Below, piece by piece: positions 6,547 through 38,425 of a stretch of DNA of 64,000 nt (positions within the stretch are counted from its first letter, which is position 1; each line of letters starts with the position of its first letter). Under the pieces are notes generated by a model. That model saw only the letters and a program-made list of their open reading frames with translations, was not told the DNA's origin and ran no database searches. The position numbers were made by a program, and so were the translations under genes. The stretch lies in assembly GCA_945861415.1 (NCBI GenBank), contig CAMAUV010000001.1, forward strand, positions 121,194 through 185,193. Reading direction: 5' to 3'. Source of the DNA: Akkermansia muciniphila (GTDB lineage: Bacteria; Verrucomicrobiota; Verrucomicrobiia; Verrucomicrobiales; V1-33).

Positions 6547-6683
6547 GCGTGCTTACGACCGATTGATTTGAGAAAGATCAACGTTCGAACTGTTCACAAC
6601 AGGAGCACTATTCTCTCATCATTCCACAAGACCACTGGCTAACGCCAAGAAACACTAACAACTCAACTATAGTCCAGCAACCT

Positions 6684-7766
6684 ATGTCACAACAATCCAC
6701 CAGCACCTCCGAAGCCAACTGGCAGCCTGAACTCAGCGACGTCGAAGCGGTCAAGAAATTGAAACAGGCCCGGGAGAATATCACCTTGGAACTGCGGAAG
6801 GCAATTGTCGGTATGGACCAAGTCATTGACGAGGTCCTCATCGCGATCTTTTCCCGCGGTCACGCTTTGCTCGAGGGTGTGCCCGGACTGGCCAAGACGC
6901 TGCTGGTGAGTTCTATTGCGAAGACGATTTCGCTTACGTTCAAACGCATCCAGTTCACACCAGACCTGATGCCGTCCGACATCACGGGCAGCGAACTGCT
7001 GCAGGATGATGCGGCCACCGGCGCCCGGCGCTTCATGTTCAGCAAGGGGCCGATCTTCGCTAACATTGTACTGGCCGACGAGATCAACCGGACTCCGCCC
7101 AAGACGCAGGCGGCCCTGCTGGAGGCCATGCAGGAAAAAATGGTTTCTGCCCGCGGCGAAGACTTTGAACTCGATCTCCCGTTTTTTGTGCTCGCGACTC
7201 AGAACCCTCTCGAGCAGGAGGGAACCTACCCACTTCCTGAGGCGCAGCTGGACCGCTTCATGTTCAAGATCAACGTCGGCTATCCGAGCCGCAGGGAGGA
7301 GATCGACATCATGCGCAGCGTAACTGGCGGCCAGCGTCCGGCACTTACCAATGTGCTCGGCAAAGCGGACATTATTACGCTGCAGAATCTGGTGTCACGC
7401 GTTCCGGTGGCTGATCATATCTTTGAATACGTTGCTACCCTAGTGCGGGCCACCCGCCCGTCGGAGGAGCAGGCCCCGGGCTTCGTCCGGAACTTCGTTT
7501 CTTGGGGTTGCGGGCCACGCGCCTGTCTGAATCTCATCACCGGTGCGAAGGCACGCGCCATTCTGCACGGTCGTTTCAACGTGTCTGTGGAGGACGTTCA
7601 AGCCCTCGCTGTTCCCGTGTTGCGCCACCGTATGGGCCTCAACTTCGCGGCCCAGTCCGAGGGGGTGGATGCCGAGCACGTGGCGAACCGCCTGTTGAGG
7701 GAAATTCCCAGCGACGAATCGCTTTACAAGTGGAACGGGAGCGCCCCGGTCGGAGCCAGTGCCTGA
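6684..7766 (+). CDS. moxR: MoxR-family AAA+ ATPase
   Basis: It has Walker A LLEGVPGLAKT and Walker B IVLADEINR, then TPPKTQAALLEAMQE and ATQNPLEQEGTYPLPEAQLDRF, which are typical of MoxR/AAA_3 proteins. Confidence 0.92.
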   Translation: MSQQSTSTSEANWQPELSDVEAVKKLKQARENITLELRKAIVGMDQVIDEVLIAIFSRGHALLEGVPGLAKTLLVSSIAKTISLTFKRIQFTPDLMPSDITGSELLQDDAATGARRFMFSKGPIFANIVLADEINRTPPKTQAALLEAMQEKMVSARGEDFELDLPFFVLATQNPLEQEGTYPLPEAQLDRFMFKINVGYPSRREEIDIMRSVTGGQRPALTNVLGKADIITLQNLVSRVPVADHIFEYVATLVRATRPSEEQAPGFVRNFVSWGCGPRACLNLITGAKARAILHGRFNVSVEDVQALAVPVLRHRMGLNFAAQSEGVDAEHVANRLLREIPSDESLYKWNGSAPVGASA

Positions 7767-7817
7767 TCAATACCGGCAGCCCGCATTTTGAGGATGCGAT
7801 GCCAGACCCAATGAATC

Positions 7818-8759
7818 ATGGACACTAAAACCGTTCCGCCATCCGCCGCACCCAAGGCGCGCGGCAAGGCTCAGTATCTCGATCCGGCCATTCTCAGCAA
7901 AATCGGCTCGCTTGAAGTGGTCGCGCGGCAGTTAGTGGAGGGCGTGCGCATCGGTCAGCACAAAAGCCCGATTCGTGGTGTCAGCAGTGAGTTCAGCGCC
8001 TATCGCCAGTATACACAGGGCGACGAAACCCGACACATTGACTGGAAAGCCTACGCTCGCTCCGACCGCTATTACATCAAACTCTTCGATGCGGAGACGA
8101 ACTTCGTCTGCAACATGTTGCTCGACGCCAGCAAGTCGATGACTTACTCGTCCGGGAAGATTTCAAAGATCGAGTATGCCAAGTATCTGGCCGCCAGTCT
8201 GGCCTACTTGGTTGTAGATCAGGGGGACTCTGCGGGAGCAGCCATCTTCGACGGCAAGCTGCAGAAATACATCGAGCCGAAATGTAGCAAGCAGGTGCTG
8301 CATGACATCTCGACCGAACTTGAAAAGATCGTTCCGGAGCCGCGAACCAATGTAGGTTCCATTCTGCACGATTTCGCCCACCGCATGAAACGGCGGGGCT
8401 TCGTGATGATTTTTTCGGACCTGTTTGACAACACCGAGGAATTCATCGCCGGTCTCAACCACCTTCGCTTCGGCGGGCACAACGTGGTGCTGTTCCACGT
8501 TCTGGATCCGTATGAGATCGAGTTTCCGCTCAGCGGAATGTGGAAGTTCCTCGGGCTGGAAGGCGAGGGTGAGGTTATCACCCAGCCGTCCCGTGTGCGG
8601 GCCAACTATTTGAAGGAACTCGAGGAGTTCGTGGGTGGAATCCGCAAGGCCTGCGCCAAGGCGCAGGTGGATTACGTCCTCGTTAATACTGCCGATCCTG
8701 TCGAGCACACCATTTCCAACTATCTTCTCCAGCGCTCCGCGCTGGCAAAGTCCCGCTGA
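7818..8759 (+). CDS. DUF58 domain protein (VWA-like partner of MoxR)
   Basis: The motif YRQYTQGDETRHIDWKAYARSDRYYIKLFDAE matches the DUF58 signature as I recall it. It sits directly downstream of MoxR, as is usual. Confidence 0.88.
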   Translation: MDTKTVPPSAAPKARGKAQYLDPAILSKIGSLEVVARQLVEGVRIGQHKSPIRGVSSEFSAYRQYTQGDETRHIDWKAYARSDRYYIKLFDAETNFVCNMLLDASKSMTYSSGKISKIEYAKYLAASLAYLVVDQGDSAGAAIFDGKLQKYIEPKCSKQVLHDISTELEKIVPEPRTNVGSILHDFAHRMKRRGFVMIFSDLFDNTEEFIAGLNHLRFGGHNVVLFHVLDPYEIEFPLSGMWKFLGLEGEGEVITQPSRVRANYLKELEEFVGGIRKACAKAQVDYVLVNTADPVEHTISNYLLQRSALAKSR

Positions 8760-10627
8760 TGAGTTCCCATCCGATCAAGCCGGCCCTCGTCCTCGCGCTC
8801 TCTGCTCTCGCGGCGGGATTGCCGACCCGGGCAGCAGATGAGGCTAGTTCGGGCAATCATCCCGTGCTGAAGCGGGCTCTTGCAGAGCATCCCACGGCGG
8901 ATGCCGATGGCAATGGCACCCTCACGCTGGCGGAATACGATATCCTGCAGAAGAAACCGCTGGTGCAACCACCGCCTGCCGAGGCCGGCAAGCCGCCCGT
9001 CGCTCCCCTGCTGCCCCTTTTGCCCGTCCTGCCAAACGGTGAAGTGATCGTGTGCGAGTTTGAGGATCCCAATTGGATCTTAAAATCGGCGGGCTGGACC
9101 AATGAGGGTCCCGCCTTCCAAGGCGACCTCGCCGGAGGGACCCGCGGCATGAGACGGCGGGTCGGTTCGTTTCAGGGAGCGGTTTTTCTCACCACCCAAG
9201 GCAAATCCGAGGCCGAGACCGGCCGGGTTGTCTCGCCGAATTTTCCGCTCGAACTCGATTTCCTCGCCGTGACCATGAGCGGCGGCAGGTTTCCGCAGCG
9301 GGTTGGAGTGAATTTATGGATCGGCGAGGAACTGGTTCGCAGCGTCACAGGAAATAACGACGACTATTTTGAGACAGTGGCGCTGGATGTTCGCGAATTT
9401 CGCGGACGAATGGCACGGGTGGAATTGATCGACCAGCACTCCGGCATCTGGGGCCACCTCAATCTGGATCGCATCGTCCTCACTGCCAATCCCCGTGAGG
9501 CCCGCCGTATTGACTCGCGTCCGCCACCTCCTGCGCCTCTTCCCGGGCTTGCCCTCACCACCACCGGACGCCAGGCTGGCGCTCTCATTGTCACGGATGG
9601 TAAGCTTACTTCCGCTCAGGCACCGGTCGCTGCGGAGAGCCTTCTGCTAGCCATCAACGCGCAGGATTCCGTAACGGAGGTGGCATCCGGCACGCCACCA
9701 CACAGCGCCGTGCAGTTGATTAGCGGTGAAGTCTGGCACGCCCAGATTCTCGGCCTCGAGGGGAAAACCCTTTCCATCAACAGTCCGCTCATCGGCCCGC
9801 GAAAAGTGCCGTTCGAAGGCATTGCGAGCATCGAATTTCAATCCGCCGACGCCGCTGCTCCCCGCGAACCGGGACACCTCTACCGCACCGGTGCGGAGCC
9901 GATTCCCGGCACGCTGGTGTGGATTCGCGACAAAGACATCGCCGTGGACTGCCCGCTCGGCGTCATTCCGCTGGAACGCCCGACCGTCGAGCGTTACGTC
10001 GTCGCCAAGCCCAAGCCTGCGGAGCTGTCTGACGCGGATGTGGTCGGAGTCGTAGGTGGGGGATTACTGCGGGGAAAAGTCACCTTCGCTGGAAACCAGC
10101 TCGTCGTGACCCACGGCATCCTTGGCGAACTCAAACTGGACTGGAAAACTGTCGGCTACCTGCGCCGCACCAAACCTGGCCTCGACTGGCTGGAAGACTT
10201 GGCGATGACGGTGGAGCAGCGTGACCCGCTCACATTGCCGCCGCCACCGCCCCAATGGACCGAGGGCGACGGCGACAGCCACCTTCGAGCCCTTCGCATC
10301 ATGCCGGAAAGCGTGGCCCGCTTCACCTTGAAATCCGAGGCTGGAAGCAAGCTGCAACTGCGGGCCGAAATCGTTCCCGTGCTCAGCTGCCGCGCTGCGA
10401 TGAAAGTCACCGTCCTAGCCGGCGATACCCCCGTCTGGAATCAAACCATCCCATCGGGCAGCGCTCCCGTGCCCCTTTCCGTCGAACTCTCTGCCGCAAC
10501 GCAGTTCGCCCTCAAAGTCGAGTTCGCCGGCCCTCTTGCATTTCCCTGCGGCATCGAGCTGCGCGACCCGCTGGTATTGAACCTCGCTCAACTCACCACC
10601 GAGCCGCAACGCACCCAACCAAACTGA
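8759..10627 (+). CDS. Secreted protein with a canonical EF-hand loop, a jelly-roll (concanavalin-like) domain and a tentative C-terminal NPCBM-like beta-sandwich
   Basis: Signal peptide: MSSHPIKPALVLALSALAAGLPTRA. EF-hand loop: DADGNGTLTLAE. The stretch GRVVSPNFPLELDFLAVTMSGGRFPQRVGVNLWIGEELV...IDQHSGIWGHLNLDRIVL resembles a beta-sandwich module common in PVC exported proteins. The start overlaps the DUF58 stop (TGATG). Confidence 0.75.
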   Translation: MSSHPIKPALVLALSALAAGLPTRAADEASSGNHPVLKRALAEHPTADADGNGTLTLAEYDILQKKPLVQPPPAEAGKPPVAPLLPLLPVLPNGEVIVCEFEDPNWILKSAGWTNEGPAFQGDLAGGTRGMRRRVGSFQGAVFLTTQGKSEAETGRVVSPNFPLELDFLAVTMSGGRFPQRVGVNLWIGEELVRSVTGNNDDYFETVALDVREFRGRMARVELIDQHSGIWGHLNLDRIVLTANPREARRIDSRPPPPAPLPGLALTTTGRQAGALIVTDGKLTSAQAPVAAESLLLAINAQDSVTEVASGTPPHSAVQLISGEVWHAQILGLEGKTLSINSPLIGPRKVPFEGIASIEFQSADAAAPREPGHLYRTGAEPIPGTLVWIRDKDIAVDCPLGVIPLERPTVERYVVAKPKPAELSDADVVGVVGGGLLRGKVTFAGNQLVVTHGILGELKLDWKTVGYLRRTKPGLDWLEDLAMTVEQRDPLTLPPPPPQWTEGDGDSHLRALRIMPESVARFTLKSEAGSKLQLRAEIVPVLSCRAAMKVTVLAGDTPVWNQTIPSGSAPVPLSVELSAATQFALKVEFAGPLAFPCGIELRDPLVLNLAQLTTEPQRTQPN

Positions 10628-10634
10628 TTATCTG

Positions 10635-12839
10635 ATGGGCTCACTGAATTCATTTGCCCTCTGGGGCTATCTTGGACTGGCTGGCATCGCCGTCCCGATC
10701 ATCATCCACCTGCTTTACCGGAAACACCGCAAGGAAACCCCCTGGGCCGCCATGGAGTTGTTGCGCCGGGCACTCGTGATTCGTTCCGGCCAGGTTAAGC
10801 TGGAGGATTATCTGATCCTCTTTCTGCGCTGCCTTGCGCTGGCCCTGCTGGCGTTCGCACTGCTGCGGCCAATCATGAACCCGGACGCCAACAGTTTGCT
10901 TGGCGAAAAGAAGGTCGGGATGATTATCGGGATTGATGCCTCTTACAGCATGAGCCACGGTGAGCAATCGCGGTTCGAGCGTGCCCTCGATAAGGCGCGG
11001 GACATCGTCAAAACCGCGCGGGAAGGCGACCCCGTCACCATCGTCCTGATGAGCAATCGCCCGCAGGTGTTGTTGCGCGGTGCGGGTTACGTCCCGTCGC
11101 AGGTCGAGGAACTCCTCGGATCCAAAGCCACGGCGACGCCCTATCGCCTCGGCCTCGAACGCAATCTTGATCTTCTCAACGAACTGGCCGACGAACTCAA
11201 GACGGCCGGTAAGGAGGTCTTCCTCGTTAGCGATTCGCAGGAACTTGACTGGGTTAATCTTTCCCCGACTGCCCGCGCCTCGTTCGAGCGCCTCACGAAG
11301 AGCGCCAGCGTGTATGCGATTCCGAGCGGCTCGGACGGCGAGGAAAACTTCACGCTGGAGCGCCTGACCTACTCGTCCGGATCACTGCGCCAGTCGGGTT
11401 CAGCTCGTTTTACCGCCATGGTGCGCAACACCGGTCGACGCGTAGCCGATGGCGGCTCCGTTGAATTTTTTGTCGGCAACGAACTCAGCAAACGGCTCGC
11501 CGTCGGTTCGCTCGAACCCGGCCAGGCACGCGGTTTGGATTTCTTTGCTTCGTTCGACAAACCCGGCGACATCCAGATCAAGGCGCAGCTCAGCCCTGAC
11601 GATCTCGTGGCCGACAACGTTCGCCATGCCATGGCCCACATCAGCTCCAGCGTCCGCGTTCTTTGCGTGGAAGGCGGCTCCGCTGGCGGGGCCGACGACC
11701 GCATGGGCGGCTACTACGCCGTCCGTGCCCTGCGCCTCAAGGACCGTGGGGACGACAGCCCAATCAAGGTCAACCAGATCGAGGCCCCCGACCTCGCGGT
11801 CGAACAACTCGGTGACTACGACGTGGTCCTGCTCGCTAACGTGCCGGACCTTTCTCCGGAAACCGTGGAGCGACTGCGGAAATTCGTGCAGCGAGGCGGC
11901 GGCCTGATCGTCTTTGCCGGCGATCGCGTGGATGCTGCGCAATACAACGAGCGTTTCGGCAAAGGCGCTGACGCATTGCTGCCAGCTGTCATCGGCAAAG
12001 TCGCCACCTACAGCGGCGATGCGACAGGCTGGAGCATCGGGCCGCCGAAATCCGATCACCTTCTGGCTGGGGTTGTTTCACGTCTCGACGAGAAGCTGCT
12101 GGATAGTGCACGGTTCAGTAAAATCACGGCCGTCGAGCCGGCACCGGGCAGCGAGACGATCCTTTCGCTCGCTGAAACGAACGCTCCCTTGCTGCTGGCC
12201 CGCAATTTCGGCGCAGGATCAGTCCTCCTTTTCACCACTTCTGCGGATAGGACATGGAGTGAACTAGCCGTTCATCCGCTTTATGCCATGCTTTTGCAGC
12301 AGGCCGTCACCAATCTGACCAGCCGCCCCGACGCGCTGCAATTCACAGCGGGAGAAGACGCCAAGCTAAGTGTAGCCGGCCGCCAAGTCGGCGAAAACGT
12401 CGCGCTCACCAAGCCCGGTGGCGAGGCCTCTGCCATCCGCGTCACTCAGGACCGCGACCAGACCGTGGCCGACATCGGGTTTGATGTTCCCGGCATCTAC
12501 CAGATCGCAGCCGAGGGACAAAAGCCGGCCGTGGCCGTGGCCGCCAACGTGGACGCCCGGGAATCCAATGTGACCGTGCTTGATGCCGGAGCGGTCGAAA
12601 ACCTCCTCAGCCCCATCGGAGTCAAAGTGCTCGGCAAAGAAGGCGACCTTGCCTCCGTCATCGAGAAAAACCGTCGCGGCCGCGAAATCTCGATGTTCCT
12701 GCTTTGGCTCGCGACCGGCGTCTTTATTCTGCAAAGTCTCCTTGCCCGCTATTTCACCAACAAAATTTCCCGCGAAGAGGTCCCCGATCTCACCGCCGCA
12801 CTGCAAAAGAGCAGGGTCGCGGCCGCCCGGCGGATCTAA
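10635..12839 (+). CDS. BatA-type protein: N-terminal double-TM 'aerotolerance regulator' domain, VWA domain and C-terminal TM anchor
   Basis: The N-terminus GLAGIAVPIIIHLLYRK...LALALLAFALLRP is the BatA N-terminal double-TM signature. The MIDAS-like motif is GIDASYSMS. The C-terminal helix is ISMFLLWLATGVFILQSLL. Confidence 0.85.
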   Translation: MGSLNSFALWGYLGLAGIAVPIIIHLLYRKHRKETPWAAMELLRRALVIRSGQVKLEDYLILFLRCLALALLAFALLRPIMNPDANSLLGEKKVGMIIGIDASYSMSHGEQSRFERALDKARDIVKTAREGDPVTIVLMSNRPQVLLRGAGYVPSQVEELLGSKATATPYRLGLERNLDLLNELADELKTAGKEVFLVSDSQELDWVNLSPTARASFERLTKSASVYAIPSGSDGEENFTLERLTYSSGSLRQSGSARFTAMVRNTGRRVADGGSVEFFVGNELSKRLAVGSLEPGQARGLDFFASFDKPGDIQIKAQLSPDDLVADNVRHAMAHISSSVRVLCVEGGSAGGADDRMGGYYAVRALRLKDRGDDSPIKVNQIEAPDLAVEQLGDYDVVLLANVPDLSPETVERLRKFVQRGGGLIVFAGDRVDAAQYNERFGKGADALLPAVIGKVATYSGDATGWSIGPPKSDHLLAGVVSRLDEKLLDSARFSKITAVEPAPGSETILSLAETNAPLLLARNFGAGSVLLFTTSADRTWSELAVHPLYAMLLQQAVTNLTSRPDALQFTAGEDAKLSVAGRQVGENVALTKPGGEASAIRVTQDRDQTVADIGFDVPGIYQIAAEGQKPAVAVAANVDARESNVTVLDAGAVENLLSPIGVKVLGKEGDLASVIEKNRRGREISMFLLWLATGVFILQSLLARYFTNKISREEVPDLTAALQKSRVAAARRI

Positions 12840-12860
12840 GCTCCAACCCATCGAATTTGC

Positions 12861-15218
12861 ATGCTCAAGAAACTACTGGCGCTCGATTCCTCTCAGGACG
12901 TTGACCGGGTTGACCTCGCCTTCCGCGGCGGATGGGAACTCGCTCTGGTGTTGATCGCTGTCGCTGTCGCCTTCGCGATCTACCTTTACCGCTCCGAACG
13001 TCACCTCGCCAAGGGCCGCCGCATGGTGATGATGATCTGTCAGGCCACCGCCCTGCTCGGCCTTATCGTCATTCTGCTGCAGCCTTATGCGATCATCCGC
13101 ATGACCAAGGAATTTAAGCGGACGTTCCTTATGATGCTGGATACATCCCGCAGCATGGCTTTCAAAGATCCGCGCAGCACTCCACCACAGTTCGAGGAAG
13201 CCGCAAAAGCGCTCAACAAGGTGCCGCTGACGGCCCCCATGCCGACGGAAAATGCTGCCGATCTCCAGCAAAGCCTGAGCGCCGCCACCCGTGTGGATTT
13301 GGCCCGCGGCGTTCTGAAACATCCCGAGATGAAGCTCGTCGAGAAGCTTCGCAAAAATTACGACGTACGCTTCTTCACCTTTGACGGACAGGTTCGTCCC
13401 GAGGAAGAGCCCTCCATCCTCGAACGCGAGGCCACCGGTGATTCCTCGCAGATCGGTTCCGCCATTGAAGAGGCGGTAGGTCGCTTTTCTGGGCAGCCAG
13501 TGGCTGGGGCCATGGTGTTCAGCGATTTTGCATGGATGGAAGGAAAAGATCCACTCCGCGTGGCCCGCCAGATGAAGGAGCGCGGCATCCCGCTTTATTC
13601 AGCAGCTATCGGCCTGCCTTCGCCGCCGGATATCAAGCTCAGCGGAGTCGTTGCTCCGGAAGTTGTCTTCAAAGGCGACAGCGTTCCACTGCGCGTAAAA
13701 GTCGAGTCCCGCGGCTACCAAGGACGCACCGTGGAAGTGCAACTCACGATCGATGGCGAGCAGGGCTCCACGCAGCAGGTTCAGCTCAAGGACGGCGTGC
13801 AATACGAAGAGATGACCTTCATCCCCCAGAAGGAGTCGGGCACCATCAAGCTGAATTTCCAGATCGCCGCCGTGGCCGGTGAAGCCACCGACCTGAACAA
13901 CCAGACCAGCCACGAGGTCCGCATCCTCAGCGAGAAGATCAAAGTCCTCTACGTCGAGGGCCTGCCGCGCTGGGAATTCCGCTATTTGCGCTGGGTGCTG
14001 CTGCGCGACCCGCGACTGGACGTGAAGTTTCTCATGACGCAGGGCGACCCCACCCTCGCCGGCTCTTCGCCGCGTCACATCGGCCGGTTCCCGCAAGATC
14101 CGGCGGAGGCGCTTAAATACGACCTCATCATCATCGGCGATGTGCCCGCCTCCTATTTCAACGCCGCCCAGACCGAGCTTATCCAGCAGCTAGTCAAGGA
14201 ACGCGGCGGATCGCTCCTCATGATCGCCGGTCCCATGGCAGCGCCGTCCACTTATCGCGAAACCCCGCTCGCCGAAATCCTGCCGGTTAACATCGGCTCC
14301 ACCGGCTTTCATAACGCGGCCGCCACCGACTCGCCCGAAGTGACGCCCGCCGGACGCGAGAGCCTTGCCACTTCGCTCTCCGTCTCCCCTGAGGTCAGTG
14401 CCCGTGTCTGGTCCAACATTAAGCCCATGTACACCCTGCCGCAGCTTGAAGGGCCAAAGGCCGGCGCCACGGTCCTGCTCCGCTTGCCGAAAGCGAGCGA
14501 GGAACTGCCCGACTATCCTCTCGTGGCATGGCACCGCTACGGTAGCGGCAAGGCGATGTTCGTTGCCACCGAGGATCTCTGGCGCATGCGGCTGGAGGTC
14601 GGCGACCGCTTCCACGCCCGGTTCTGGGGTCAGACCATCCAATTCCTGACGCTCTCGCGGCTGCTTGGGCAGAATAAGCAGATCACCCTCGAAACCGACC
14701 GCGGCTCCTACAGCACCGGCGAGCAGGTCCGCATCTTTGCCAATGTCCTGACCGAATCCTTCGAGCCCGTGTCGCAGCCGTCCTACGATGTGACCCTCGA
14801 GGCGAAAGGCGAGACGGACACCGCTACCACCATCGAGTTGAGCCCCGTTCCTGAGACCCCCGGCCTTTTCTCCGGGACTCATCTCGCGGGCAAGGATGGC
14901 AGCTACGTGCTCCGCACTCCCCCCGCCGATGCCGAAATCTCGAACCAGACCGGCTTCAAGATCGCCACCCAGGCCATGGAGGACCGCGAAACCGCCATGC
15001 AGCCTGATGTGGCGCGGCAGGTTGCGGAACTGTCCGGTGGCCGGGAACTGCTCCTCACCAGCCTTGGCGACTTCCCGGACAGCCTAGGCGAAGAAAAGAA
15101 ACTCACCAGCGTAGTGCGTCTCGAGAAAGATCTCTGGGACGTACCTGTCTGGTTCCTCATCGTCGTTGCGTTCGCCGGTCTGGAGTGGTATCTCAGACGC
15201 AAGGAAAACCTCGTATAA
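12861..15218 (+). CDS. Bitopic membrane VWA-domain protein with a GATase1/ThuA-fold-like domain
   Basis: The N-terminal TM region is LALVLIAVAVAFAIYLY...LLGLIVILLQP. The MIDAS-like motif is MLDTSRSMAF. It also has KVLYVEGLPRWEFRYLRWVLLRD...DLIIIGDV. The C-terminal TM helix is VPVWFLIVVAFAGLEWYL. Confidence 0.8.
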   Translation: MLKKLLALDSSQDVDRVDLAFRGGWELALVLIAVAVAFAIYLYRSERHLAKGRRMVMMICQATALLGLIVILLQPYAIIRMTKEFKRTFLMMLDTSRSMAFKDPRSTPPQFEEAAKALNKVPLTAPMPTENAADLQQSLSAATRVDLARGVLKHPEMKLVEKLRKNYDVRFFTFDGQVRPEEEPSILEREATGDSSQIGSAIEEAVGRFSGQPVAGAMVFSDFAWMEGKDPLRVARQMKERGIPLYSAAIGLPSPPDIKLSGVVAPEVVFKGDSVPLRVKVESRGYQGRTVEVQLTIDGEQGSTQQVQLKDGVQYEEMTFIPQKESGTIKLNFQIAAVAGEATDLNNQTSHEVRILSEKIKVLYVEGLPRWEFRYLRWVLLRDPRLDVKFLMTQGDPTLAGSSPRHIGRFPQDPAEALKYDLIIIGDVPASYFNAAQTELIQQLVKERGGSLLMIAGPMAAPSTYRETPLAEILPVNIGSTGFHNAAATDSPEVTPAGRESLATSLSVSPEVSARVWSNIKPMYTLPQLEGPKAGATVLLRLPKASEELPDYPLVAWHRYGSGKAMFVATEDLWRMRLEVGDRFHARFWGQTIQFLTLSRLLGQNKQITLETDRGSYSTGEQVRIFANVLTESFEPVSQPSYDVTLEAKGETDTATTIELSPVPETPGLFSGTHLAGKDGSYVLRTPPADAEISNQTGFKIATQAMEDRETAMQPDVARQVAELSGGRELLLTSLGDFPDSLGEEKKLTSVVRLEKDLWDVPVWFLIVVAFAGLEWYLRRKENLV

Positions 15219-15228
15219 CAGCTGACCA

Positions 15229-19681: not shown

Positions 19682-19705
19682 CGCGGCTCGCCGGGCAGAT
19701 TGACT

Positions 19706-21682: not shown

Positions 21683-24600
21683 GCCCGCGAGGTCCTATCC
21701 GGGTTTGTCTGGCCCTTTTTTTCGGAGCCCTCGCTGCATCGGCGGAATCGCCCCCCACTGACCGGCGCTGGGAGCAGGCACAGAAGGCTTACGCCGAGGG
21801 ATTCAGCGACGAGGGACACCACCTGCTCAAAGCCCTCGTCGCCGAGCACCCCGGCGATCTTGATCTCGCTGCGGCCTGCTACGAAAAGATCTTTGCCCAA
21901 GAATACCGCATTCTGCCAAAGCATGTGCCGTTCAAGCTTTTGGGCGAGCCCATGCACAGCCCTTGGCATGCCACCAATCACTACACAGGGGTCAATTCCA
22001 ACATGGAGATCCCGCCCGCCGTAGAACGCCTGATGGCGCTTGAGCGGCTTGGCGGAGTTTCCGCTCATACGGCCCTTCTTCGCACTGCCGGCGGAGCCTC
22101 CGTCGAAGGCGGCCTCAGCCGGCGAGCCTATCTCGAACTAAGCGACATGCTCACCCGCATGAGCCGCGAAAACCCTCGCGACCCGTTCTGGCGGATGATG
22201 GAGGCATACGCTCTCCGCGGGATGAATCGCCCCGAGGCCGGGAGGCTCATTGATGAACTCCGGCGGGAAATCGATCTCGACCATACCGACGATGGGCTGC
22301 GCAGCGACTGGATGGTGGCCGCGAGGATGTTCGATGAGGGCTTTCCCCCACGCGGCAAAAGGAAGGTTCTCCTGCCGGAGGGTAGTCCACTCCCTCTCCT
22401 GGCACCGGTCAATCCTGACGATCCCGACGACCCATGGAGCAAGGTCGCGGATCGCTCCCCAAAAGATATTCCCGGCGAGGTGGACCGGCTCATCGTGCTT
22501 GCTTCCGGTTCTAGGGATTTACTGATGTGGGCGGATACGGATAGCGGCGGCGTTCATCCCGCCCGCGCCCTTGATTACCACCTGCTCAGCAAACCTGCCC
22601 CCGAACTCGACCCCCTGCGTAAGATTCAGGAAAAAACGTTCTCCCCCGAAGCTCAGTCCGCCGCCCGCACCGAGGCCGACATCCTCAAAGTAACCCGCCG
22701 CTTCGCATGGGCGCGCCCCGCTCAGGTGCTTCTGCTGAAAATCGCCAGCGAGGCGCTCTGGGACGGGCGTTTCGAATCTGCATGGCGCAGCTTTCAGGAA
22801 GTCCTTCTCCACACCGCTGACCCCGCGCTCCGCGAAGCTGCCCAAGTCGGTCTCTGGACCGCCCATGGACTCTCCGGCGGAGCAGCGGAAGTGCTCGCGC
22901 AACCCGCCGCCTTCGAGCCTGAGAAGACCTACCCGTGGATGGGTCGTCCGACCAAGGGCTCGGCAATTCGCGCTATCCTTCAGGCTATGGTTCGGCCCGC
23001 ACCGACGGTCGTCGCTTCTTCGCTCAAGGATGTCCGCCCGCACGTCCTGAACCTCCCGCCGGTGACTCCGTGGGTGATGAATACCCACGCGGCTGGGGAC
23101 TTGACCCTCGATCTTCAGGTGGTCGATAAAAAGGTCCTGGTCACCGGGCGCAACCTTCTCGCCGCCTACGACGCTGCCAAACCCGATGCCCCGTTGTGGG
23201 CTCATGTGCAGCATTTCAGCTCCCCGCCCAATAATAACCGGTCACCCTACCCCGGCTACTTCCGCGGGCTCATTGAGGACGGGACACTTTTTACGCGCTG
23301 GGGCATGTCTGAAATGCCGAGCGGTCTGGCCGCTTTCAGCCTTGCCGCCGGCGATTCGTTGTGGGCGGCCCTCGACGCGATACCCAAAGGTTTCAGCGGG
23401 GAAAATCTCCGACAAATAGGCATCATGCCTATCTGCGATCCAGTCCGTGCCGACGGCAGATTGTTCTACCTGCAAATGAGCACTGTCAGCCCGGCGGTGA
23501 ACGGAGGCACTCCCAACGTCAGCCTCGTTTGCTTCGACCCCGGCGCCGTTCAGCCCCGTTGGGCGACTACGATCTTGGAGCCTATCGCGGTGGAGCGCCA
23601 GCACTTCCAGCACAACTACAACACATTCGCCTACGGCAACGCGGTCGCCGTCCATCGTGGCGCGGTCTACAGCTGCACGAATGCTGGTTACATCATCCGC
23701 TCCGATGTGCGCGACGGCCGCGTCGAATGGACCCACAAGTATCCCATTATTGGCGGCGATAGTCAGTCTTTCGGCAGCGCCCCTATCATCGCCGGCAACA
23801 ATGTCATCTGCCTGACCCGCAATGGCGAGCGCGTCTTCGCCCTCGACCAACGCACGGGTTTTGTTGCATGGGAGAATGTCATGATCCGCACCTTCGAGGT
23901 GCTAGGCCTCTGGCAGGACACCCTCGTGGTGCGTGGGCCTACCCACATCGCCGGGCTCGATGTCGCTACCGGAAACGGCCGGTGGATCCGGAATCTAACG
24001 GGGCGCACCCTCAACCGCGGCCAGCTCCTCGCCGATTCCGTCTATATCGGACAGTCCGACGCCCTGCAGCGGCTCGACGCCCGCACCGGCGAGCTGCTCG
24101 AAAGCCGGCCATGGGCGCTCCAGCCCGAACGCGCCCTCAGTTTCATCATCTCCGGCCAGGACCTTTACATCGCCACGGATCGGCCCGCCGCCGACCCCCG
24201 CCAAAATGTGGGCCAGCTTCTCAGCCCGGAAGTGGCTTCTTCCGCCCAGCCGCTCAAGCTACCCCTCAAGCGCGCATGGTCGCTCCTGCGCCCCGATGCC
24301 TCGCTCATGCTCCCGCCCGCCGGAGTCAACTCCGGCACCGCCTATGTCTTTGGCGACGGCCTCATTGAGTGTCTCGAAGTCAACGAACGCGGTGGCATCC
24401 GCTGGCGCCGCTTTCTTGATCTCAACACCAACCAACTCACACGCCACTTCGTCGGCCAGACTGGCGAGATGCTCGTGCTCATGGAAAAGGGCGGTTCATA
24501 CGAGAAGCCCCCGCGTGCCCTCGCCCTCGACACCAAAACCGGCGCGACGATTTGGGAGACGACCATCCCTCCCTGGCACGACCCGCCACCCTCCGTGTGC

Positions 24601-25449
24601 GGCTTCCTGATGATTTTCGCCAGTCACGCCCATCACCTTGGAGGCGGAGCGACCACCTTCGACCTCACCACAGGAAAGCAACTTTGGCGACGCTTCATTC
24701 GCAGCCCCGCCCCTCCGATAGCCTTGGGGGACAGCTCCCGTTTGCAGCTTCTCACCAGCCTTTGGACGCCGAGACCCACGCGTGTGACCCTCAACGCGCA
24801 AACCGGCCACACTATCCCGGATGCCCCGGATAAACCTGCATGGCCGCCCCTGCTTCACAACGTCCACAACAAACAGGGAGCATTCGTCTATCTCCTCCCT
24901 CCGGTGGGAGAGTCGGCGATTTTCCGGGAACAGGCTCACGTTGTGGACCATGTCCCCGGGTCCGGCGCTCCCTACTACCTCATCCGGCCGCGCGACGGTA
25001 ATGACAAGACCACCATGGGCGTCTATCGCGCCGACGACCCGTCCTACTTTTTCAAACTCACGAGCGATAACGTCATGTTCGAGGGCGACTACGCCATCAC
25101 CATCCAGGGAAAAATCGAGATCGCCGACCTCAAAGCCAAACGCCTGCTGCCTCTCCCTGCGGACGAAAAGGCACCCATCCACCAGCAGGGACTTCTCTGC
25201 CGCATCGGCCCCGATCGTTTACTCAAAATCATCGACAAGGGCGGCGGGAAGAATCTCGTCTTCATCATAGATCTCCCAAGCGGGACCGTGACCGAGGGGG
25301 AACTCGAAAATCCCGGTCAGACCGAGCAAATCGCCACGTCACGCTACCTCAACCTCAATCCCCATAACAGGCCGTTTCTTCCGACGTTCGACCGCGTCTT
25401 TCTGGCCTACGACAACACCAACATTACCGCGTGGGTCGCGGCCCTCTAG
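21679..25449 (+). CDS. Giant exported protein, paralogue 1: N-terminal helical (TPR-like) region plus PQQ/BamB-like beta-propeller repeats
   Basis: The ATG at 21679 overlaps the upstream stop (ATGA) and gives the signal peptide MSPRGPIRVCLALFFGALAASA. It has repeated 'ALDQRTGFVAWEN', 'GLDVATGNGRWIRN' and 'LDARTGELLESRPW' motifs typical of PQQ-like propeller blades. I read the supplied ORF start at 21613 as an artefactual extension. Confidence 0.82.
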   Translation: MSPRGPIRVCLALFFGALAASAESPPTDRRWEQAQKAYAEGFSDEGHHLLKALVAEHPGDLDLAAACYEKIFAQEYRILPKHVPFKLLGEPMHSPWHATNHYTGVNSNMEIPPAVERLMALERLGGVSAHTALLRTAGGASVEGGLSRRAYLELSDMLTRMSRENPRDPFWRMMEAYALRGMNRPEAGRLIDELRREIDLDHTDDGLRSDWMVAARMFDEGFPPRGKRKVLLPEGSPLPLLAPVNPDDPDDPWSKVADRSPKDIPGEVDRLIVLASGSRDLLMWADTDSGGVHPARALDYHLLSKPAPELDPLRKIQEKTFSPEAQSAARTEADILKVTRRFAWARPAQVLLLKIASEALWDGRFESAWRSFQEVLLHTADPALREAAQVGLWTAHGLSGGAAEVLAQPAAFEPEKTYPWMGRPTKGSAIRAILQAMVRPAPTVVASSLKDVRPHVLNLPPVTPWVMNTHAAGDLTLDLQVVDKKVLVTGRNLLAAYDAAKPDAPLWAHVQHFSSPPNNNRSPYPGYFRGLIEDGTLFTRWGMSEMPSGLAAFSLAAGDSLWAALDAIPKGFSGENLRQIGIMPICDPVRADGRLFYLQMSTVSPAVNGGTPNVSLVCFDPGAVQPRWATTILEPIAVERQHFQHNYNTFAYGNAVAVHRGAVYSCTNAGYIIRSDVRDGRVEWTHKYPIIGGDSQSFGSAPIIAGNNVICLTRNGERVFALDQRTGFVAWENVMIRTFEVLGLWQDTLVVRGPTHIAGLDVATGNGRWIRNLTGRTLNRGQLLADSVYIGQSDALQRLDARTGELLESRPWALQPERALSFIISGQDLYIATDRPAADPRQNVGQLLSPEVASSAQPLKLPLKRAWSLLRPDASLMLPPAGVNSGTAYVFGDGLIECLEVNERGGIRWRRFLDLNTNQLTRHFVGQTGEMLVLMEKGGSYEKPPRALALDTKTGATIWETTIPPWHDPPPSVCGFLMIFASHAHHLGGGATTFDLTTGKQLWRRFIRSPAPPIALGDSSRLQLLTSLWTPRPTRVTLNAQTGHTIPDAPDKPAWPPLLHNVHNKQGAFVYLLPPVGESAIFREQAHVVDHVPGSGAPYYLIRPRDGNDKTTMGVYRADDPSYFFKLTSDNVMFEGDYAITIQGKIEIADLKAKRLLPLPADEKAPIHQQGLLCRIGPDRLLKIIDKGGGKNLVFIIDLPSGTVTEGELENPGQTEQIATSRYLNLNPHNRPFLPTFDRVFLAYDNTNITAWVAAL

Positions 25450-25452
25450 CAG

Positions 25453-28400
25453 ATGAAAAGTCCGATCCTCCTCACTCTCGCCCTGTTCCTTGGAGCCCTC
25501 CCTGCGCCAGCGAATCCACCCACTGACGACGCCCGCTGGGCCAACGCGCTCAAGGCTTACGGGAAAGGTCAGCGCGAGCAGGGCCACCGCTTGCTCGCCG
25601 CCCTCACCGCCGAGCATCCAGGCGATCTCGATCTCGCCGCCGCCTGCTACGGGAAAATCCTCGCCAGCGAAAACCTCCCGTCCGTGAAGACCCCGGTGCT
25701 CACCGACCGTCCCTGGATCACCCTTGGCACGGAACGCCTGCTGGCCCTCGAACGCCTCGGTGCCCACTCCGCAAACACATCCATCTTCCGTTCCGCCGCC
25801 GCCGCTGCGAGTCAGCACGAGGTTGCAAAAAACCGCTACCTCGACGCCCATGAAACGATCTCCCGTCTGCGCTCCGAGAATGACCACGATCTTTTCTGGC
25901 GCATGATCGAAGTCCGCATCCTCCGCAGCATGGGCCTGCCCGAAGCCGAAGCACGCGTCTCCGAACTCAGGCGGGACTATGATCCTGACCATTCCGATCC
26001 TGACAAACGCGCTGATTGGGAATGGATCGCCACAGAAATCACCCCGCCCGGTGGTCCTCCTCTGGTCGGTCGTCCCGCCGGGGCCCGGCCACCCCTGCGC
26101 CTACCCGTTACCGTCCCGGTCGCGCCCACGGGCAGCCCGATCAGTCTGCTGGCACCCGAAGATCCCGAAGGCCGCTGGCGGGTCATCACCGAACCGTCCC
26201 CCAAAGGAGGCGTTGGCGCCGTGGATCGCTTCCTCGGCTACGCTTACGCTGCCGCTGAAGGGGTGCCGTGGAGCGGTGGTCGCGGTCTGCTCGATTCCAG
26301 CCGGGCGATTGACCTGCACCTCCTCAGTAAACCCGCCGCCGAACTCGAAGCCCTGCGCCAGGAGCAGGAAAAGCAATTCTCCCGCGAAGCCCAGACCGCA
26401 GCCCGCAGCGAAGCGGGCATCCTCAAAGCAAGCCGCCGCTTCCCATGGTCGCGGTCGGCCCAGGCGCTTCTCCTGAAACTCGCCGGCGAGGCGCTTTGGG
26501 ACGGACGCTCCGAGTCCGCATGGCGCAGCTTTCAGGAAGTGCTCGTCCATACCACCGACCCTGCACTCCGCGAGGCCGCGCAGACGGGCCTCTGGACCGC
26601 TCAGGCCCTCTCCGGCGGAGCTGCGGAAGTGCTCGCGCAACCCGCCGCTTTCGAGCCTGGCAAGACCTATCAATGGATGGGGCGTCAGGCCAAAGGTGAG
26701 GAAATTCGCGCCGCCCTGCAGGCCACAGTCCGGCCCGCGACTTCGGTCGCTGCGCCTGCGCTTTCGGCCGTCCGTCCGCGTGTGCTCCAACTCCCGCCAG
26801 TGGCACCGTGGACCATGAGTGTGGGCTTCAGCGTCGATCTCCAGGTGGTTGGGAATAGAGTCGTGGCCAGTGCCCGAAACGTCATCGCCGCCTACGACGC
26901 CGCCAATCCCGGCGCTCCGCTGTGGACCCATTCGCAACAACGTTCCACCGCCAACTCCCACTGGCCATGCTACTACCGCAGTCTCATTGAAGAAAGCACG
27001 ATTTTCACGCGCTGGAGCGTCACCGACTTGCCCAGCGGTCTGGCCGCCTTTGACCTCGCCAGCGGTGATCCGTTGTGGACTGCGCTGAGTGAAATCCCCC
27101 GGCCCAAACGTTTCAGCCCTGTAAAAAAGCAACCGGTGCGCTTCTCCGTGCCGGCGGGCGATCCGATCCGCGCCGATGGCCAGCTCTTCTACCTGCAATG
27201 GGACTCCATCCATGAGCTCCACTCCAAGCAAGGCACGAACGTGAACCTCGTGTGCTTCGATCCTGGCACCGGCGAGCCCCGCTGGACGACCACAGTCAAC
27301 GATCACCGGTTTGCAGGAGATTTCCGCGGCCCCACAGCCGCCATCTACGGAAACTCCGTCACCGCGCATCGCGGAGCGGTCTATAGCTGCACGAACACCG
27401 GGCAGATTGTTCGTTCGGACGTTCGTGACGGTCGCATCGAATGGTCCCATAACTATCGCCACCACCCCACCAACGCGGAGTTTCTCGGCACCGCCCCCAT
27501 CGTCGCCGGCAGCAATGTGATCTGCCTTCCCCGCGATTCGGGAATCGTCATCGCTCTCGACCAGCGCACCGGCTTTCCCGTCTGGGAAAATCCCCTCATC
27601 CGCGCCGCCGAGGCGCTGGGCATCTGGCAGGACACCCTCGTGCTGCGCGGTGTGGCCACCCTCGCCGGGCTCGATCTCGCCACAGGAAAGACCCGGTGGT
27701 CCCGGAATCTGACCGGGCGCACTCTCGACCGCTCGCAGCTCATCGCAGACTCCATCTACCTCGGCGAGGCCGACTCCCTCCTACGGCTCGACGCCCGCAC
27801 CGGCGAATTGCTCGAAACCCGCCCGTGGGCGCTCCAGTCCGAACGCGCCCTCACGTTCACCCTCGCCGGCCAAGACCTCTACGTCGTCTCAGACCGCCCC
27901 GCCGACGACCCCCGGCAGAAAACCGGCCAACCTCTCGGCCCAGAACTCGCCTCGTCACCGCTCCCGTTCAAGCTGCCCATGCAGCGCGCATGGTCACTCT
28001 CGCGCCCTGAGGCCACCCTCGCCGTCCCGCCTGCCGGAGTAAGCCCCGGCACTGCTTACGTCATCAGCGATGGCCTCATCGAGTGCCTTGATGTCGTCAA
28101 ACGCGGTGCCATCCGCTGGCGACGATTCCTCAATGCCAGCGGCCCCGCAGTATTCTTCGCCGGCGACACACTCATTCTGCGGGAAAAGGAAGTCCCACAT
28201 CTCCCGTCCGCCCGCGTCCTCGCCATCGATTCAAAGACTGGAGTGACACTCTGGGAAGCACCCGTGCCCATCAACCACCAGCACGTCTTTCACTTCGGCA
28301 CCCGCCTCCTTTTCCACGACGGACGTGAAAAACTCGTCGCCCTCGACCTTGCAACTGGCCAGCGGGCATGGCAGACCACTTTGATCACGGCCCATACTCA

Positions 28401-29640
28401 AAATCCCTACTGGGACGGCACTAACCTGCATCTTTTCCGCGCCCCCGCCACGGGCAATCTCGAGCACTTTACCATCGACCCCATTACTGGCGACGCGATA
28501 GCGCACCGGGATGTTGAGGCGAGGCCGCCGGGCGAAACCCCCACGGCCATCCGCGAACTCGAAGACGGCACCTACGAAATTCGCTTCGCACCCGCCACGG
28601 CCCGGTATTTCCGCGTCACCACGCTCTCCAGTTCCGGCGGGGTGGGGGACTTTGCCTCCGCTGCCGAGTTTTACCTGCTCGGTCCGGATGGCCAGCGCCT
28701 GCCGCGCGACCAGTGGACCGTAACCGCCGCTCACGAACCCAACGCCGGCCTCAGAGCCAAGCCCCGCAATACCATTGATGGCAATCCGGATTCATGGTGG
28801 CACTCCCAGTGGACCAATGGCCAGACGCCGCACCCGCACTACTTCCTTATCGACCTCGGCACCGCCCAGAACATTGCCGGATTTCAATACCTGCCGGCAA
28901 AAATTATCAACAACAACGGGCTGATCGCCGAATTCGAACTCCACGTGAGCCAAGACAAAACGGCGTGGGGCGCGCCAGTCAGCAAAGGAAGTTTTTCCGA
29001 AAACATCAGAGTCAGAACTCTCGAGACCATGGCCTCTGTCCCTTCCTTTTTCGAGGTGCGCCGCCAGCACCGCCAAGTCCCGTCCGTCTATCGCTACGGC
29101 CTCACCGGCGACGCCGTTCCCGTGCAGGGAATCGGCAGTATCCTGCGCGTCGAAGGGCCTTACGCTCTCCTCTCCACCCGCGATAAACTCGACGCCCCGG
29201 AAACCCTCACGGTGCGCCGCGCCGACGACCCAGCCTACGTCTTCCCGCTCCCGATCAAACACGACCGGCATGGCCAGCTCCTCTTCGTCGGCGACTACGC
29301 CATCACCCATCAGGGCAAACTCGAAATCGTCGACTTGAAATCCAAGCGCCAGGTAGCCGTCCCCGGGGACGAAAAAGCCCCCATCCACCAGGGAGGTTTC
29401 CTCTGCCGCCTCGGCGCGGATCGTTTGCTCAAAATCGTCAACCATGAGGGGAAGCAACTCGCCTTCACCATCGACCTCCAGAGCGGCACCGTGAGCGATG
29501 GCGTCCTGGCAAACCAGACCGAACCAATCAACGAAAACCGCTACGCCCGACCCGGCGGCCAAAACCTCGCATTGACCTTCGACCAAACCTTCCTCGTCTG
29601 CGACAACTCCGCCATCAGCGCATGGGTCGCCGCACCATAG
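25453..29640 (+). CDS. Giant exported protein, paralogue 2: same architecture as paralogue 1 plus an inserted F5/8 type C (discoidin)-like module
   Basis: The signal peptide is MKSPILLTLALFLGALPAPA. It is collinear with paralogue 1 from the N-terminus (PPTDxRW..AEHPGDLDLAAACY) to the C-terminus (I(S/T)AWVAA). The insert TIDGNPDSWWHSQW...HYFLIDLG..IAGFQYLPA...IAEFELHVSQDKTAWG fits the discoidin consensus. Confidence 0.85.
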   Translation: MKSPILLTLALFLGALPAPANPPTDDARWANALKAYGKGQREQGHRLLAALTAEHPGDLDLAAACYGKILASENLPSVKTPVLTDRPWITLGTERLLALERLGAHSANTSIFRSAAAAASQHEVAKNRYLDAHETISRLRSENDHDLFWRMIEVRILRSMGLPEAEARVSELRRDYDPDHSDPDKRADWEWIATEITPPGGPPLVGRPAGARPPLRLPVTVPVAPTGSPISLLAPEDPEGRWRVITEPSPKGGVGAVDRFLGYAYAAAEGVPWSGGRGLLDSSRAIDLHLLSKPAAELEALRQEQEKQFSREAQTAARSEAGILKASRRFPWSRSAQALLLKLAGEALWDGRSESAWRSFQEVLVHTTDPALREAAQTGLWTAQALSGGAAEVLAQPAAFEPGKTYQWMGRQAKGEEIRAALQATVRPATSVAAPALSAVRPRVLQLPPVAPWTMSVGFSVDLQVVGNRVVASARNVIAAYDAANPGAPLWTHSQQRSTANSHWPCYYRSLIEESTIFTRWSVTDLPSGLAAFDLASGDPLWTALSEIPRPKRFSPVKKQPVRFSVPAGDPIRADGQLFYLQWDSIHELHSKQGTNVNLVCFDPGTGEPRWTTTVNDHRFAGDFRGPTAAIYGNSVTAHRGAVYSCTNTGQIVRSDVRDGRIEWSHNYRHHPTNAEFLGTAPIVAGSNVICLPRDSGIVIALDQRTGFPVWENPLIRAAEALGIWQDTLVLRGVATLAGLDLATGKTRWSRNLTGRTLDRSQLIADSIYLGEADSLLRLDARTGELLETRPWALQSERALTFTLAGQDLYVVSDRPADDPRQKTGQPLGPELASSPLPFKLPMQRAWSLSRPEATLAVPPAGVSPGTAYVISDGLIECLDVVKRGAIRWRRFLNASGPAVFFAGDTLILREKEVPHLPSARVLAIDSKTGVTLWEAPVPINHQHVFHFGTRLLFHDGREKLVALDLATGQRAWQTTLITAHTQNPYWDGTNLHLFRAPATGNLEHFTIDPITGDAIAHRDVEARPPGETPTAIRELEDGTYEIRFAPATARYFRVTTLSSSGGVGDFASAAEFYLLGPDGQRLPRDQWTVTAAHEPNAGLRAKPRNTIDGNPDSWWHSQWTNGQTPHPHYFLIDLGTAQNIAGFQYLPAKIINNNGLIAEFELHVSQDKTAWGAPVSKGSFSENIRVRTLETMASVPSFFEVRRQHRQVPSVYRYGLTGDAVPVQGIGSILRVEGPYALLSTRDKLDAPETLTVRRADDPAYVFPLPIKHDRHGQLLFVGDYAITHQGKLEIVDLKSKRQVAVPGDEKAPIHQGGFLCRLGADRLLKIVNHEGKQLAFTIDLQSGTVSDGVLANQTEPINENRYARPGGQNLALTFDQTFLVCDNSAISAWVAAP

Positions 29641-38402: not shown

Positions 38403-38425
38403 CCACTATAAAATCATTCCAACTC

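Follow-up and report, generated by a model that had tools for sequence, protein, structure and literature searches.

The window analysed here, a 64,000-nucleotide stretch of an Akkermansia muciniphila assembly (GCA_945861415.1, contig CAMAUV010000001.1, positions 121,194 to 185,193), contains a 23-kb array of eleven intact open reading frames (ORFs) on one strand (6684–29640, +). The array joins a MoxR-type AAA+ ATPase, a DUF58 protein and membrane-bound von Willebrand factor A (VWA) proteins to a series of exported proteins, and ten of its genes form a conserved unit that is kept in order across several phyla of the Planctomycetota–Verrucomicrobiota–Chlamydiota (PVC) group. Judged from this recurrent gene order, which excludes a chance arrangement, the eleven-gene run is a real operon-like unit. 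The leader and the genes, called g1 to g11 below, are as follows.

6485–6683, strand not assigned: AT-rich leader of 199 nt (GC content 42%, against 62% in the array) with a T14 run
6684–7766, +: g1, MoxR-type AAA+ ATPase of 360 amino acids (aa), cytoplasmic (AAA_3, AAA_lid_2, Walker motifs)
7818–8759, +: g2, DUF58 protein (VWA-like adaptor) of 313 aa, cytoplasmic, with no transmembrane segment (DUF58, 1e-41)
8759–10627, +: g3, secreted EF-hand/jelly-roll protein of 622 aa (signal peptide, AlphaFold2 (AF2) model, Foldseek)
10635–12839, +: g4, inner-membrane BatA-type protein (BatA, TIGR02226, VWA_2, CARDB, DUF4350/DUF7408)
12861–15218, +: g5, second inner-membrane protein with a metal ion-dependent adhesion site (MIDAS) and two N-terminal transmembrane segments (DTSRS; GATase1-like)
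15229–16881, +: g6, DUF4175-like protein with three transmembrane segments (DUF4175, 32.6 bits, cut-off 27.3; weak Big_7)
16878–18626, +: g7, secreted Ala/Glu-rich helical protein with a (GQ)n tract (signal peptide, composition)
18623–19681, +: g8, secreted single-domain (alpha/alpha)6 toroid of 352 aa (Sec signal peptide; AF2 pLDDT 88, pTM 0.84)
19706–21682, +: g9, secreted HEAT-repeat protein with a C-terminal domain of about 190 aa (HEAT_2, 4.6e-19; AlphaRep/HEAT matches in the PDB)
21679–25449, +: g10, giant secreted protein with a helical N-terminus and a PQQ-repeat propeller (PQQ_2, 2.3e-20)
25453–29640, +: g11, giant secreted protein with a helical N-terminus, a PQQ-repeat propeller, a family 32 carbohydrate-binding module (CBM32) and a conserved C-terminal domain (PQQ_2, 3.1e-36; F5_F8_type_C, 7e-13)

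Successive junctions from g1 to g11 measure 51, −1, 7, 21, 10, −4, −4, 24, −4 and 3 nt, and overlapping stop and start signals lie at 8757–8761 (TGATG) and at 16878, 18623 and 21679 (ATGA). An initial annotation of this DNA had listed the same ORFs, the ten junction lengths, the overlap sites and an AT-rich gap of about 200 nt before g1; all of these match the recomputed coordinates and the measured leader, and nearly all of its domain calls proved correct in scans with hidden Markov models (HMMs), motif searches and structure models. A metagenome contig in ENA has exactly the sequence of the window. The leader is likely to be the promoter region. It holds a single weak sigma-70-like site (6593–6622), and neither it nor the surrounding region matches an Rfam family.

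Conservation was followed outwards from the middle of the array. A profile-guided scan with the g8 toroid, run over one genome per species, returned 353 stretches encoding relatives, and the best 80 of these 353 loci, all from uncultured genomes and mostly from metagenome-assembled genomes (MAGs), were searched with all proteins of the window. A locus was assessable for a given neighbour when it held enough sequence to judge, and the neighbour was counted when it lay on the same strand and on the expected side. Before the toroid gene, g3 was present at 28 of 29 assessable loci, g4 at 31 of 31, g5 at 34 of 34, g6 at 39 of 39 and g7 at 44 of 46; after it, g9 was present at 67 of 71 and a giant at 51 of 57. 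These loci span Verrucomicrobiales, Opitutia/Puniceicoccaceae, Kiritimatiellia, Lentisphaerae, Planctomycetia, Phycisphaerae, Tepidisphaerales and Ca. Brocadiia, the closest genome being a Verrucomicrobiales MAG (L003) whose g8 is 91% identical. The association of genes 6 to 11 with the MoxR–DUF58–VWA genes, as initially proposed, is thus borne out: their homologues are syntenic with DUF58, BatA and VWA genes across the PVC group. In two more distant contexts, a Planctomycetota MAG and a JGI contig (L083–L086), MoxR followed by DUF58 heads the array, and the genes upstream of MoxR (RtcB or hypothetical) are unrelated, lie on the opposite strand and differ between genomes, which fixes the left boundary at MoxR.

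In the reciprocal direction, a profile of the giant was run against metagenome contigs and yielded 30 orthologue-grade loci that could be assessed. At 28 of these the HEAT gene lies directly upstream, with the toroid gene before it; the exceptions are one locus with a toroid gene and no HEAT gene (L126) and one with neither in its 2.1 kb of upstream sequence (L110). Giants that lack HEAT and toroid genes close by are therefore very rare, and because synteny holds in both directions, from g8 and from the giant, chance adjacency is excluded. Identity between phyla is highest for DUF58 (55–66%) and the toroid (57–61%), intermediate for g5, g4 and g6 (38–50%), while g3, g7, g9 and the giant share the least (26–36%). 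In some MAGs the array occurs on two contigs, at 99.3% (L015/L023), 90% (L006/L007) and 82% (L021/L024) nucleotide identity; these pairs are probably strain mixtures in the bins and not paralogous second copies.

The two giants of the window are paralogues with 51% identity over 1,063 aa, in keeping with their first description as a helical, PQQ/BamB-like pair, which the PQQ_2 matches also confirm. A typical lineage has one giant, of the g11 type, whereas g10 was found only in near relatives (L004, L005, L008 and L124), which are slightly more distant than the closest genome (L003), and is absent from L003 and from most other lineages. On this distribution g10 is a lineage-specific, local duplicate of the giant, and its pattern suggests either that the duplication was recent and g10 was later lost, or that the copy number varies. 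Of the eleven-gene unit originally claimed, the order stands, as it is kept across phyla, and the size does not, since g10 is a local duplicate and the conserved unit has ten genes. We considered the next gene, g12 (29719–32502, +), as a further member and rejected it. It encodes a ThuA–DUF7133–HEAT–cytochrome c protein of the PVC-type heme-binding class (TIGR02604/TIGR02603) and begins 78 nt past g11; the closest relative is the only other genome in which it comes right after the giant, and weak g12-like genes (29–31% identity) lie 6–8 kb downstream in Roseibacillus-like contigs and are absent elsewhere.

Comparison beyond the PVC group separates an older part of the array from a lineage-specific one. 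A locus on plasmid 1, a megaplasmid of Gemmatirosa kalamazoonensis (L087, 5762–26589; Gemmatimonadota) encodes a VWA protein, a TPR/peptidase_MA protein, MoxR, DUF58, a BatA/VWA/GATase1-like protein and a DUF4175-like protein of 1,268 aa that scores 26 bits, just under the cut-off; two MacB/FtsX-type permease genes come next, and the locus has no g3, toroid, HEAT or giant gene. Loci of this kind and of the RL3499–RL3502 type, with MoxR, DUF58, a BatA-N/VWA/GATase1-like protein, a second VWA/GATase1-like protein and a DUF4175-like protein with low complexity, correspond to g1, g2 and g4–g7. In the PVC array the DUF4175 equivalent is split into g6, which passes the DUF4175 cut-off and follows the BatA/GATase1-like genes, and g7, its low-complexity part, and g3, the toroid, HEAT and giant genes are added. 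Sequence comparison thus assigns g1, g2 and g4–g7 to a core module that also exists outside the PVC group (g7 by position and architecture) and leaves g3, g8, g9 and the giant as the lineage-specific set. We take this core to be the RL3499–RL3502 plus TIGR02302 arrangement of Alphaproteobacteria, an assumption for which the Gemmatirosa locus was the one inspected. Because a DUF4175-like protein follows MoxR–DUF58–BatA in Gemmatirosa, g6 and g7 are not a novel extension; the earlier proposal that genes 6 to 11 all extend beyond the Bat operon holds for g8, g9 and the giant and falls for these two. A decayed paralogous module on plasmid pPL62-3 of Planctomyces sp. SH-PL62 (L088, 1–17300), ordered as fragmented MoxR and DUF58, BatA, VWA, two hypotheticals, an NPCBM/NEW2 protein and a WD40 protein, suggests that the core has repeatedly been combined with jelly-roll and propeller partners.

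By prediction, two of the ten conserved proteins are cytoplasmic (g1 and g2), three are in the inner membrane (g4, g5 and g6) and the remaining five (g3, g7, g8, g9 and the giant) start with Sec signal peptides. g1 matches AAA_3 at 204.9 bits (cut-off 27; 4.6e-61) and AAA_lid_2 at 59.7 bits; these domains, intact Walker A (GVPGLAKT) and Walker B (IVLADE) motifs and a DUF58 gene 51 nt downstream identify it as a MoxR protein. MIDAS motifs of the DxSxS form occur in g2 (DASKS, residue 103), g4 (DASYS, residue 101) and g5 (DTSRS, residue 94), and with three such motifs and both Walker motifs intact the parts look competent. g4 has an N-terminal double transmembrane segment, a VWA domain, a CARDB/Ig region, a GATase1-like domain and a C-terminal transmembrane segment (PF07584 47.2 bits, TIGR02226 59.6 bits, VWA_2 33.2 bits), so that the BatA double-transmembrane domain followed by VWA, as in Bat operons, is present. 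HMM and motif searches therefore uphold the MoxR, DUF58 and BatA-type VWA assignments of g1, g2 and g4. g5 aligns with g4 in the GATase1-like region and shares its plan; its own GATase1_like match is weak (22.8 bits, under the cut-off), and with two N-terminal transmembrane segments it is not strictly the bitopic protein first described, although the DTSRS motif and, weakly, the GATase1-like domain were correctly called.

The short loops between the first two transmembrane segments are basic, with Lys or Arg at 7 of 26 residues in g4 and 5 of 12 in g5, which places the large domains in the periplasm: a 612-aa domain of g4 and a 712-aa domain of g5 are predicted to be periplasmic from this positive-inside charge. 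The topology agrees with that of the Borrelia homologue BB0173, whose VWA domain was found by experiment to be periplasmic (PMC5700661). For g6, transmembrane segments and charge distribution predict a 79-aa cytoplasmic loop and an Ig-like C-terminal domain in the periplasm. g6 and g7 had been described as together DUF4175-like; g6 passes the cut-off, and in g7 DUF4175 is undetectable.

Among the exported proteins, g3 matches no Pfam family. Its EF-hand loop (D48-x-D-x-N-G-x-L-x-x-x-E59) is canonical and kept in the alignment, and its AF2 model (pLDDT 82) contains two jelly-roll, CBM-like domains and small beta repeats, with Foldseek matches to the jelly-rolls of CBM51, reelin, EngBF and BcsB; signal peptide, alignment and model together support the first reading of g3 as a secreted EF-hand/jelly-roll protein. 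g7 has no HMM or Pfam match, also in a relaxed Pfam scan, and its C-terminal 66 aa (517–582) are 45–79% conserved across loci. Numerous MAG contigs (L010–L047) begin or stop inside g7, directly upstream of the toroid gene; its low-complexity (GQ)n/(GE)n tract (window positions 18280–18390, about aa 470–505) probably breaks short-read assemblies. For g9, the ATG at 19706 gives a clear signal peptide, where the gene caller favoured a later start. The HEAT_2 match bears out the HEAT call, and a relaxed Pfam scan of the C-terminus, a putative beta-sandwich in the first reading, gave no credible match.

The toroid g8 carries four QxxxGxW/F repeats and an invariant C-terminal PYRxLPIYQR, and its AF2 fold and repeats agree with its first description as a secreted alpha/alpha-toroid with four QxxxGxW motifs. 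Pfam gives weak SQHop_cyclase and Prenyltrans matches, and Foldseek returns AprG, MstE, single-domain proteins resembling squalene–hopene cyclases, GH76 and a glucose epimerase, all at a TM-score of about 0.6, so that the fold search does not discriminate isoprenoid-acting from sugar-acting toroids. A class II terpene or squalene–hopene cyclase was rejected: g8 lacks DxDD, has one toroid in place of the two-domain beta-gamma architecture, carries a Sec signal peptide and scores far below the family cut-offs (TIGR01787, 30 bits against 322; TIGR01507, 18 against 431). Toroid domains 31–40% identical to g8 also occur fused to other domains (P0328, P0356, P0410, P0319, P0359, P0367), the partners being ECF sigma factors, a BlaR1-type M56 peptidase domain and PD40 propeller proteins; the toroid is the C-terminal domain on the ECF sigma factors (39–40% identity to g8) and on the BlaR1-type M56 protein (33%). 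Judged from these fusions, sequence data suggest a recurrent extracytoplasmic or periplasmic ligand-binding module.

In g11 at least nine xDxxxGxxxW blade motifs lie between residues 481 and 975, and the blades resemble BamB at the level of the single blade. The F5/8 type C domain (CBM32) is found in g11 and is missing from g10; its strong matches are to CBMs found in galactose oxidase and sialidase. For the N- and C-termini of both giants, Pfam scans at relaxed thresholds gave no credible family. After the signal peptide, their domain order is a helical N-terminus of about 480 aa and then the blades, whereas in PVC membrane-coat-like proteins the propeller comes first and the alpha-solenoid follows.

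The closest functional precedent is the Mxa accessory system, the only MoxR/DUF58/VWA set with a defined periplasmic client. As in the array, the gene for a MoxR AAA+ ATPase is grouped with those for a DUF58/VWA protein and other VWA proteins (PMC12276312), the likeness being judged from this published description. Mxa acts on a periplasmic propeller with PQQ-type repeats for Ca2+ insertion, and the array encodes a giant with PQQ-type repeats; the match to Mxa extends to MoxR, DUF58 and the membrane VWA set and, for the client, stops at blade-level similarity with no PQQ dehydrogenase. The array has no methanol dehydrogenase, MxaJ, MxaI or cytochrome cL, its propeller protein is, unlike the Mxa client, a non-enzyme-like giant of 1,250–1,400 aa with a helical N-terminus and a CBM32, and it has extra toroid, HEAT, EF-hand/jelly-roll and DUF4175-like members. 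Other AAA+ hexamers with a VWA/MIDAS adaptor (NorQ/NorD, RavA/ViaA, CbbQ/CbbO) remodel a dedicated target or insert a metal; their targets are cytoplasmic or membrane enzymes with no periplasmic partner set, unlike the array.

Against this background we tentatively favour, at somewhat below even probability, a reading in which the array encodes one co-inherited PVC envelope system, a MoxR/VWA machine that matures periplasmic clients of its own. On the cytoplasmic side, hexameric MoxR together with DUF58 would act on the short basic loops and tails of g4 and g5 and on the 79-residue loop of g6, and ATP-driven remodelling would be relayed to the periplasmic VWA/MIDAS, Ig and GATase1-like domains of g4, g5 and g6. 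The exported partners (the HEAT protein, the EF-hand/jelly-roll protein, the toroid and the propeller giant, which has a glycan-binding CBM32) would in turn receive a metal from these domains, most likely Ca2+, or be folded and assembled by them. The end product would most likely be a glycan-contacting periplasmic or outer-envelope complex for envelope upkeep. In the Mxa precedent, methanol dehydrogenase, a periplasmic enzyme with a PQQ propeller, receives its Ca2+ through MxaR/S/A/C/K/L, and the defect is rescued by Ca2+ in vitro (PMC12276312); the EF-hand of g3 and the PQQ-type blades of the giant would fit such a Ca2+-linked logic. Rhizobium leguminosarum mutants in related genes are reported to have envelope-integrity defects (PMC5700661), and the CenR binding sites of Rhodobacter sphaeroides include a MoxR gene and a TIGR02302 gene (PMC9275681); both point to a role of the core in envelope upkeep, as the CBM32 of g11 and the CBM-like jelly-rolls of g3 point to a glycan ligand. 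Predicted topology and the Mxa precedent are both in line with the earlier suggestion of a MoxR/VWA chaperone that serves a large envelope complex, and the mechanism stays inferred. A bolder form of the idea, a PVC-specific trans-envelope machine in which the AAA+ motor acts through the double-transmembrane VWA proteins to build or drive a Ca2+-dependent, glycan-binding propeller/toroid/HEAT complex, strikes us as improbable; if true, it could underlie periplasmic ('selfish') polysaccharide capture or a PVC-specific envelope structure.

Several observations weigh against a maturation machine with dedicated clients. In some Phycisphaerae (L078–L080) the toroid gene is the last of the array, neither a HEAT gene nor a giant gene lies near it, and the giant therefore cannot be the sole client. 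DUF58 and the toroid are the most conserved proteins and the giant is among the least, a pattern that a hub role for the toroid would fit at least as well as a client role. The giants are far from quinoprotein dehydrogenases (TIGR03075, 19.9 and 21.5 bits against a cut-off of 480; no qualifying stretch for PF01011). Consensus promoter and terminator scans of the region gave nothing beyond chance and are uninformative. The model also postulates contacts among the array proteins and, as for Mxa, an action of a cytoplasmic AAA+ ATPase across the membrane.

A different account of the same proteins, which we regard as rather unlikely while taking it seriously, is that all ten form a permanent trans-envelope scaffold for envelope integrity or cell shape, with MoxR only assembling or regulating it and with no separate client. 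The reported R. leguminosarum phenotypes agree with this, as do the tightly kept gene order and content; the DUF4175-like g6 with g7 and its long helical low-complexity region could span the periplasm, and a toroid as conserved as DUF58 would be expected of a structural hub. A scaffold of this kind sits poorly, however, with domain and signal scans that reveal no outer-membrane beta-barrel or lipoprotein anchor encoded in the array, with HEAT and giant genes that are missing or relocated in L070 and L078–L082, and with a giant copy number that varies among close relatives. If the exported CBM proteins and the toroid instead bound external or own-envelope polysaccharide, and the membrane module coupled this binding to import or a signal, the system would serve glycan capture, uptake or sensing. 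Such a role appears unlikely to us, even though the CBM32 of the giant strongly matches those of galactose oxidase and sialidase, the g3 jelly-rolls resemble CBM51, EngBF and BcsB, the toroid fold also matches sugar-acting (alpha/alpha)6 proteins (AprG with GlcNAc, GH76, glucose epimerase) and toroid relatives sit C-terminally on ECF sigma factors and a BlaR1-type M56 protein. Polysaccharide accumulates in the periplasm of PVC bacteria (PMC13174399), and the window is rich in glycan-processing genes (BNR, SASA, CBM6, ThuA). Yet transporters, TonB-dependent receptors, glycoside hydrolases and signalling output domains are all absent from the conserved array, g10 lacks a CBM, the genes flanking the array differ between genomes, and the core module exists in Gemmatirosa without these CBM proteins.

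Two known systems share part of the gene content. The Bacteroides/spirochaete Bat operon (moxR-DUF58-batA-batB-batC-batD-batE) has the order MoxR, DUF58, BatA-type double-transmembrane VWA protein and second membrane MIDAS protein in common with the array, and the VWA domain faces the periplasm in both (by experiment for BB0173, by prediction here). That the array is itself a classical Bat-type aerotolerance or oxidative-stress operon is nevertheless very improbable. Its g4 and g5 have twice the length of their Bat counterparts and carry CARDB/Ig and GATase1-like domains, it encodes five secreted proteins in addition, and none of the 11 proteins matches a BatD or TPR family, so that BatD and BatC/BatE-type TPR proteins are missing and HEAT repeats occur instead. 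The array is also kept in Ca. Brocadiia (L070), and in the Bat literature the function remained undemonstrated in Leptospira (PMC3557215) and the reducing-power idea unproven (PMC5700661). MoxR–vWA–beta-propeller 'ternary' conflict systems (Kaur et al. 2020, PMC7159879) likewise combine MoxR, vWA and a third large repeat or propeller protein, and the bpMoxR Pfam model reaches 40 bits in g1, over its cut-off. We give almost no credence to a conflict system, or to unrelated operons adjacent by chance, an option already disfavoured and, as regards chance adjacency, ruled out by synteny in both directions. In g1 the AAA_3 match reaches 205 bits, compared with 40 for bpMoxR, and the P-loop is GVPGLAKT and not the GXXXTAKS variant of ternary systems (PMC7159879). 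Whereas those systems are cytoplasmic and patchy with variable effectors, all partners in the array are extracytoplasmic, effector domains are absent, PADLOC finds no defence match except a generic HEAT one, and the distribution looks vertical and phylum-spanning.

The maturation reading, and the array itself, bear on a long-standing question. MoxR–DUF58–VWA ('Bat-like') operons are among the most widespread bacterial clusters without an agreed function, 25 years on, with Mxa as the one well-defined case. The finding is therefore best described as a PVC-wide extended MoxR/VWA envelope system, the core of which is known and the added secreted members of which are apparently undescribed and are candidate clients or partners. 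It will not startle a specialist; it is a concrete handle on what these modules act on, in that the PVC array supplies fixed, co-inherited candidate clients and so makes the target of the module experimentally approachable. It is also a conserved unit of about 20 kb, of unassigned function, in several PVC phyla whose envelope biology is actively debated, and within it the small secreted toroid, with 57–61% identity between phyla and fused relatives, stands out. Full-text literature, with most subscription journals outside its coverage, yielded no description of the array, which leaves standing, within that coverage, the initial supposition that the arrangement had not been characterised.

Three published systems of similar name or content were compared and set aside. 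The MoxR–vWA–YebA/transglutaminase degradation system (PMC3495828) differs in that the array has no TGL protein; the Akkermansia MUL1/MUL2 'periplasmic complex', which by its description comprises a Sus-like and a type IV pilus locus, is unrelated; and the 'conserved PVC genetic module' of Kamneva 2012 is a DUF1501/PSCyt module at a different locus. A module of the Kamneva type, unrelated to the array, lies in the window about 19 kb downstream (48286–52857, +), with a PSCyt1–PSCyt2–PSD1 protein followed by a DUF1501 protein. Glycan-related neighbours of the array stand at 5312–6484, 32536–33567 and 35781–40322 (BNR/sialidase-like, SASA acetylesterase, GSDH–PKD–CBM6, ThuA-like and BD-FAE esterase genes), and they are not conserved with it in the other genomes examined. 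A PSD/PSCyt3 cytochrome protein is encoded at 44393–47068 (−).

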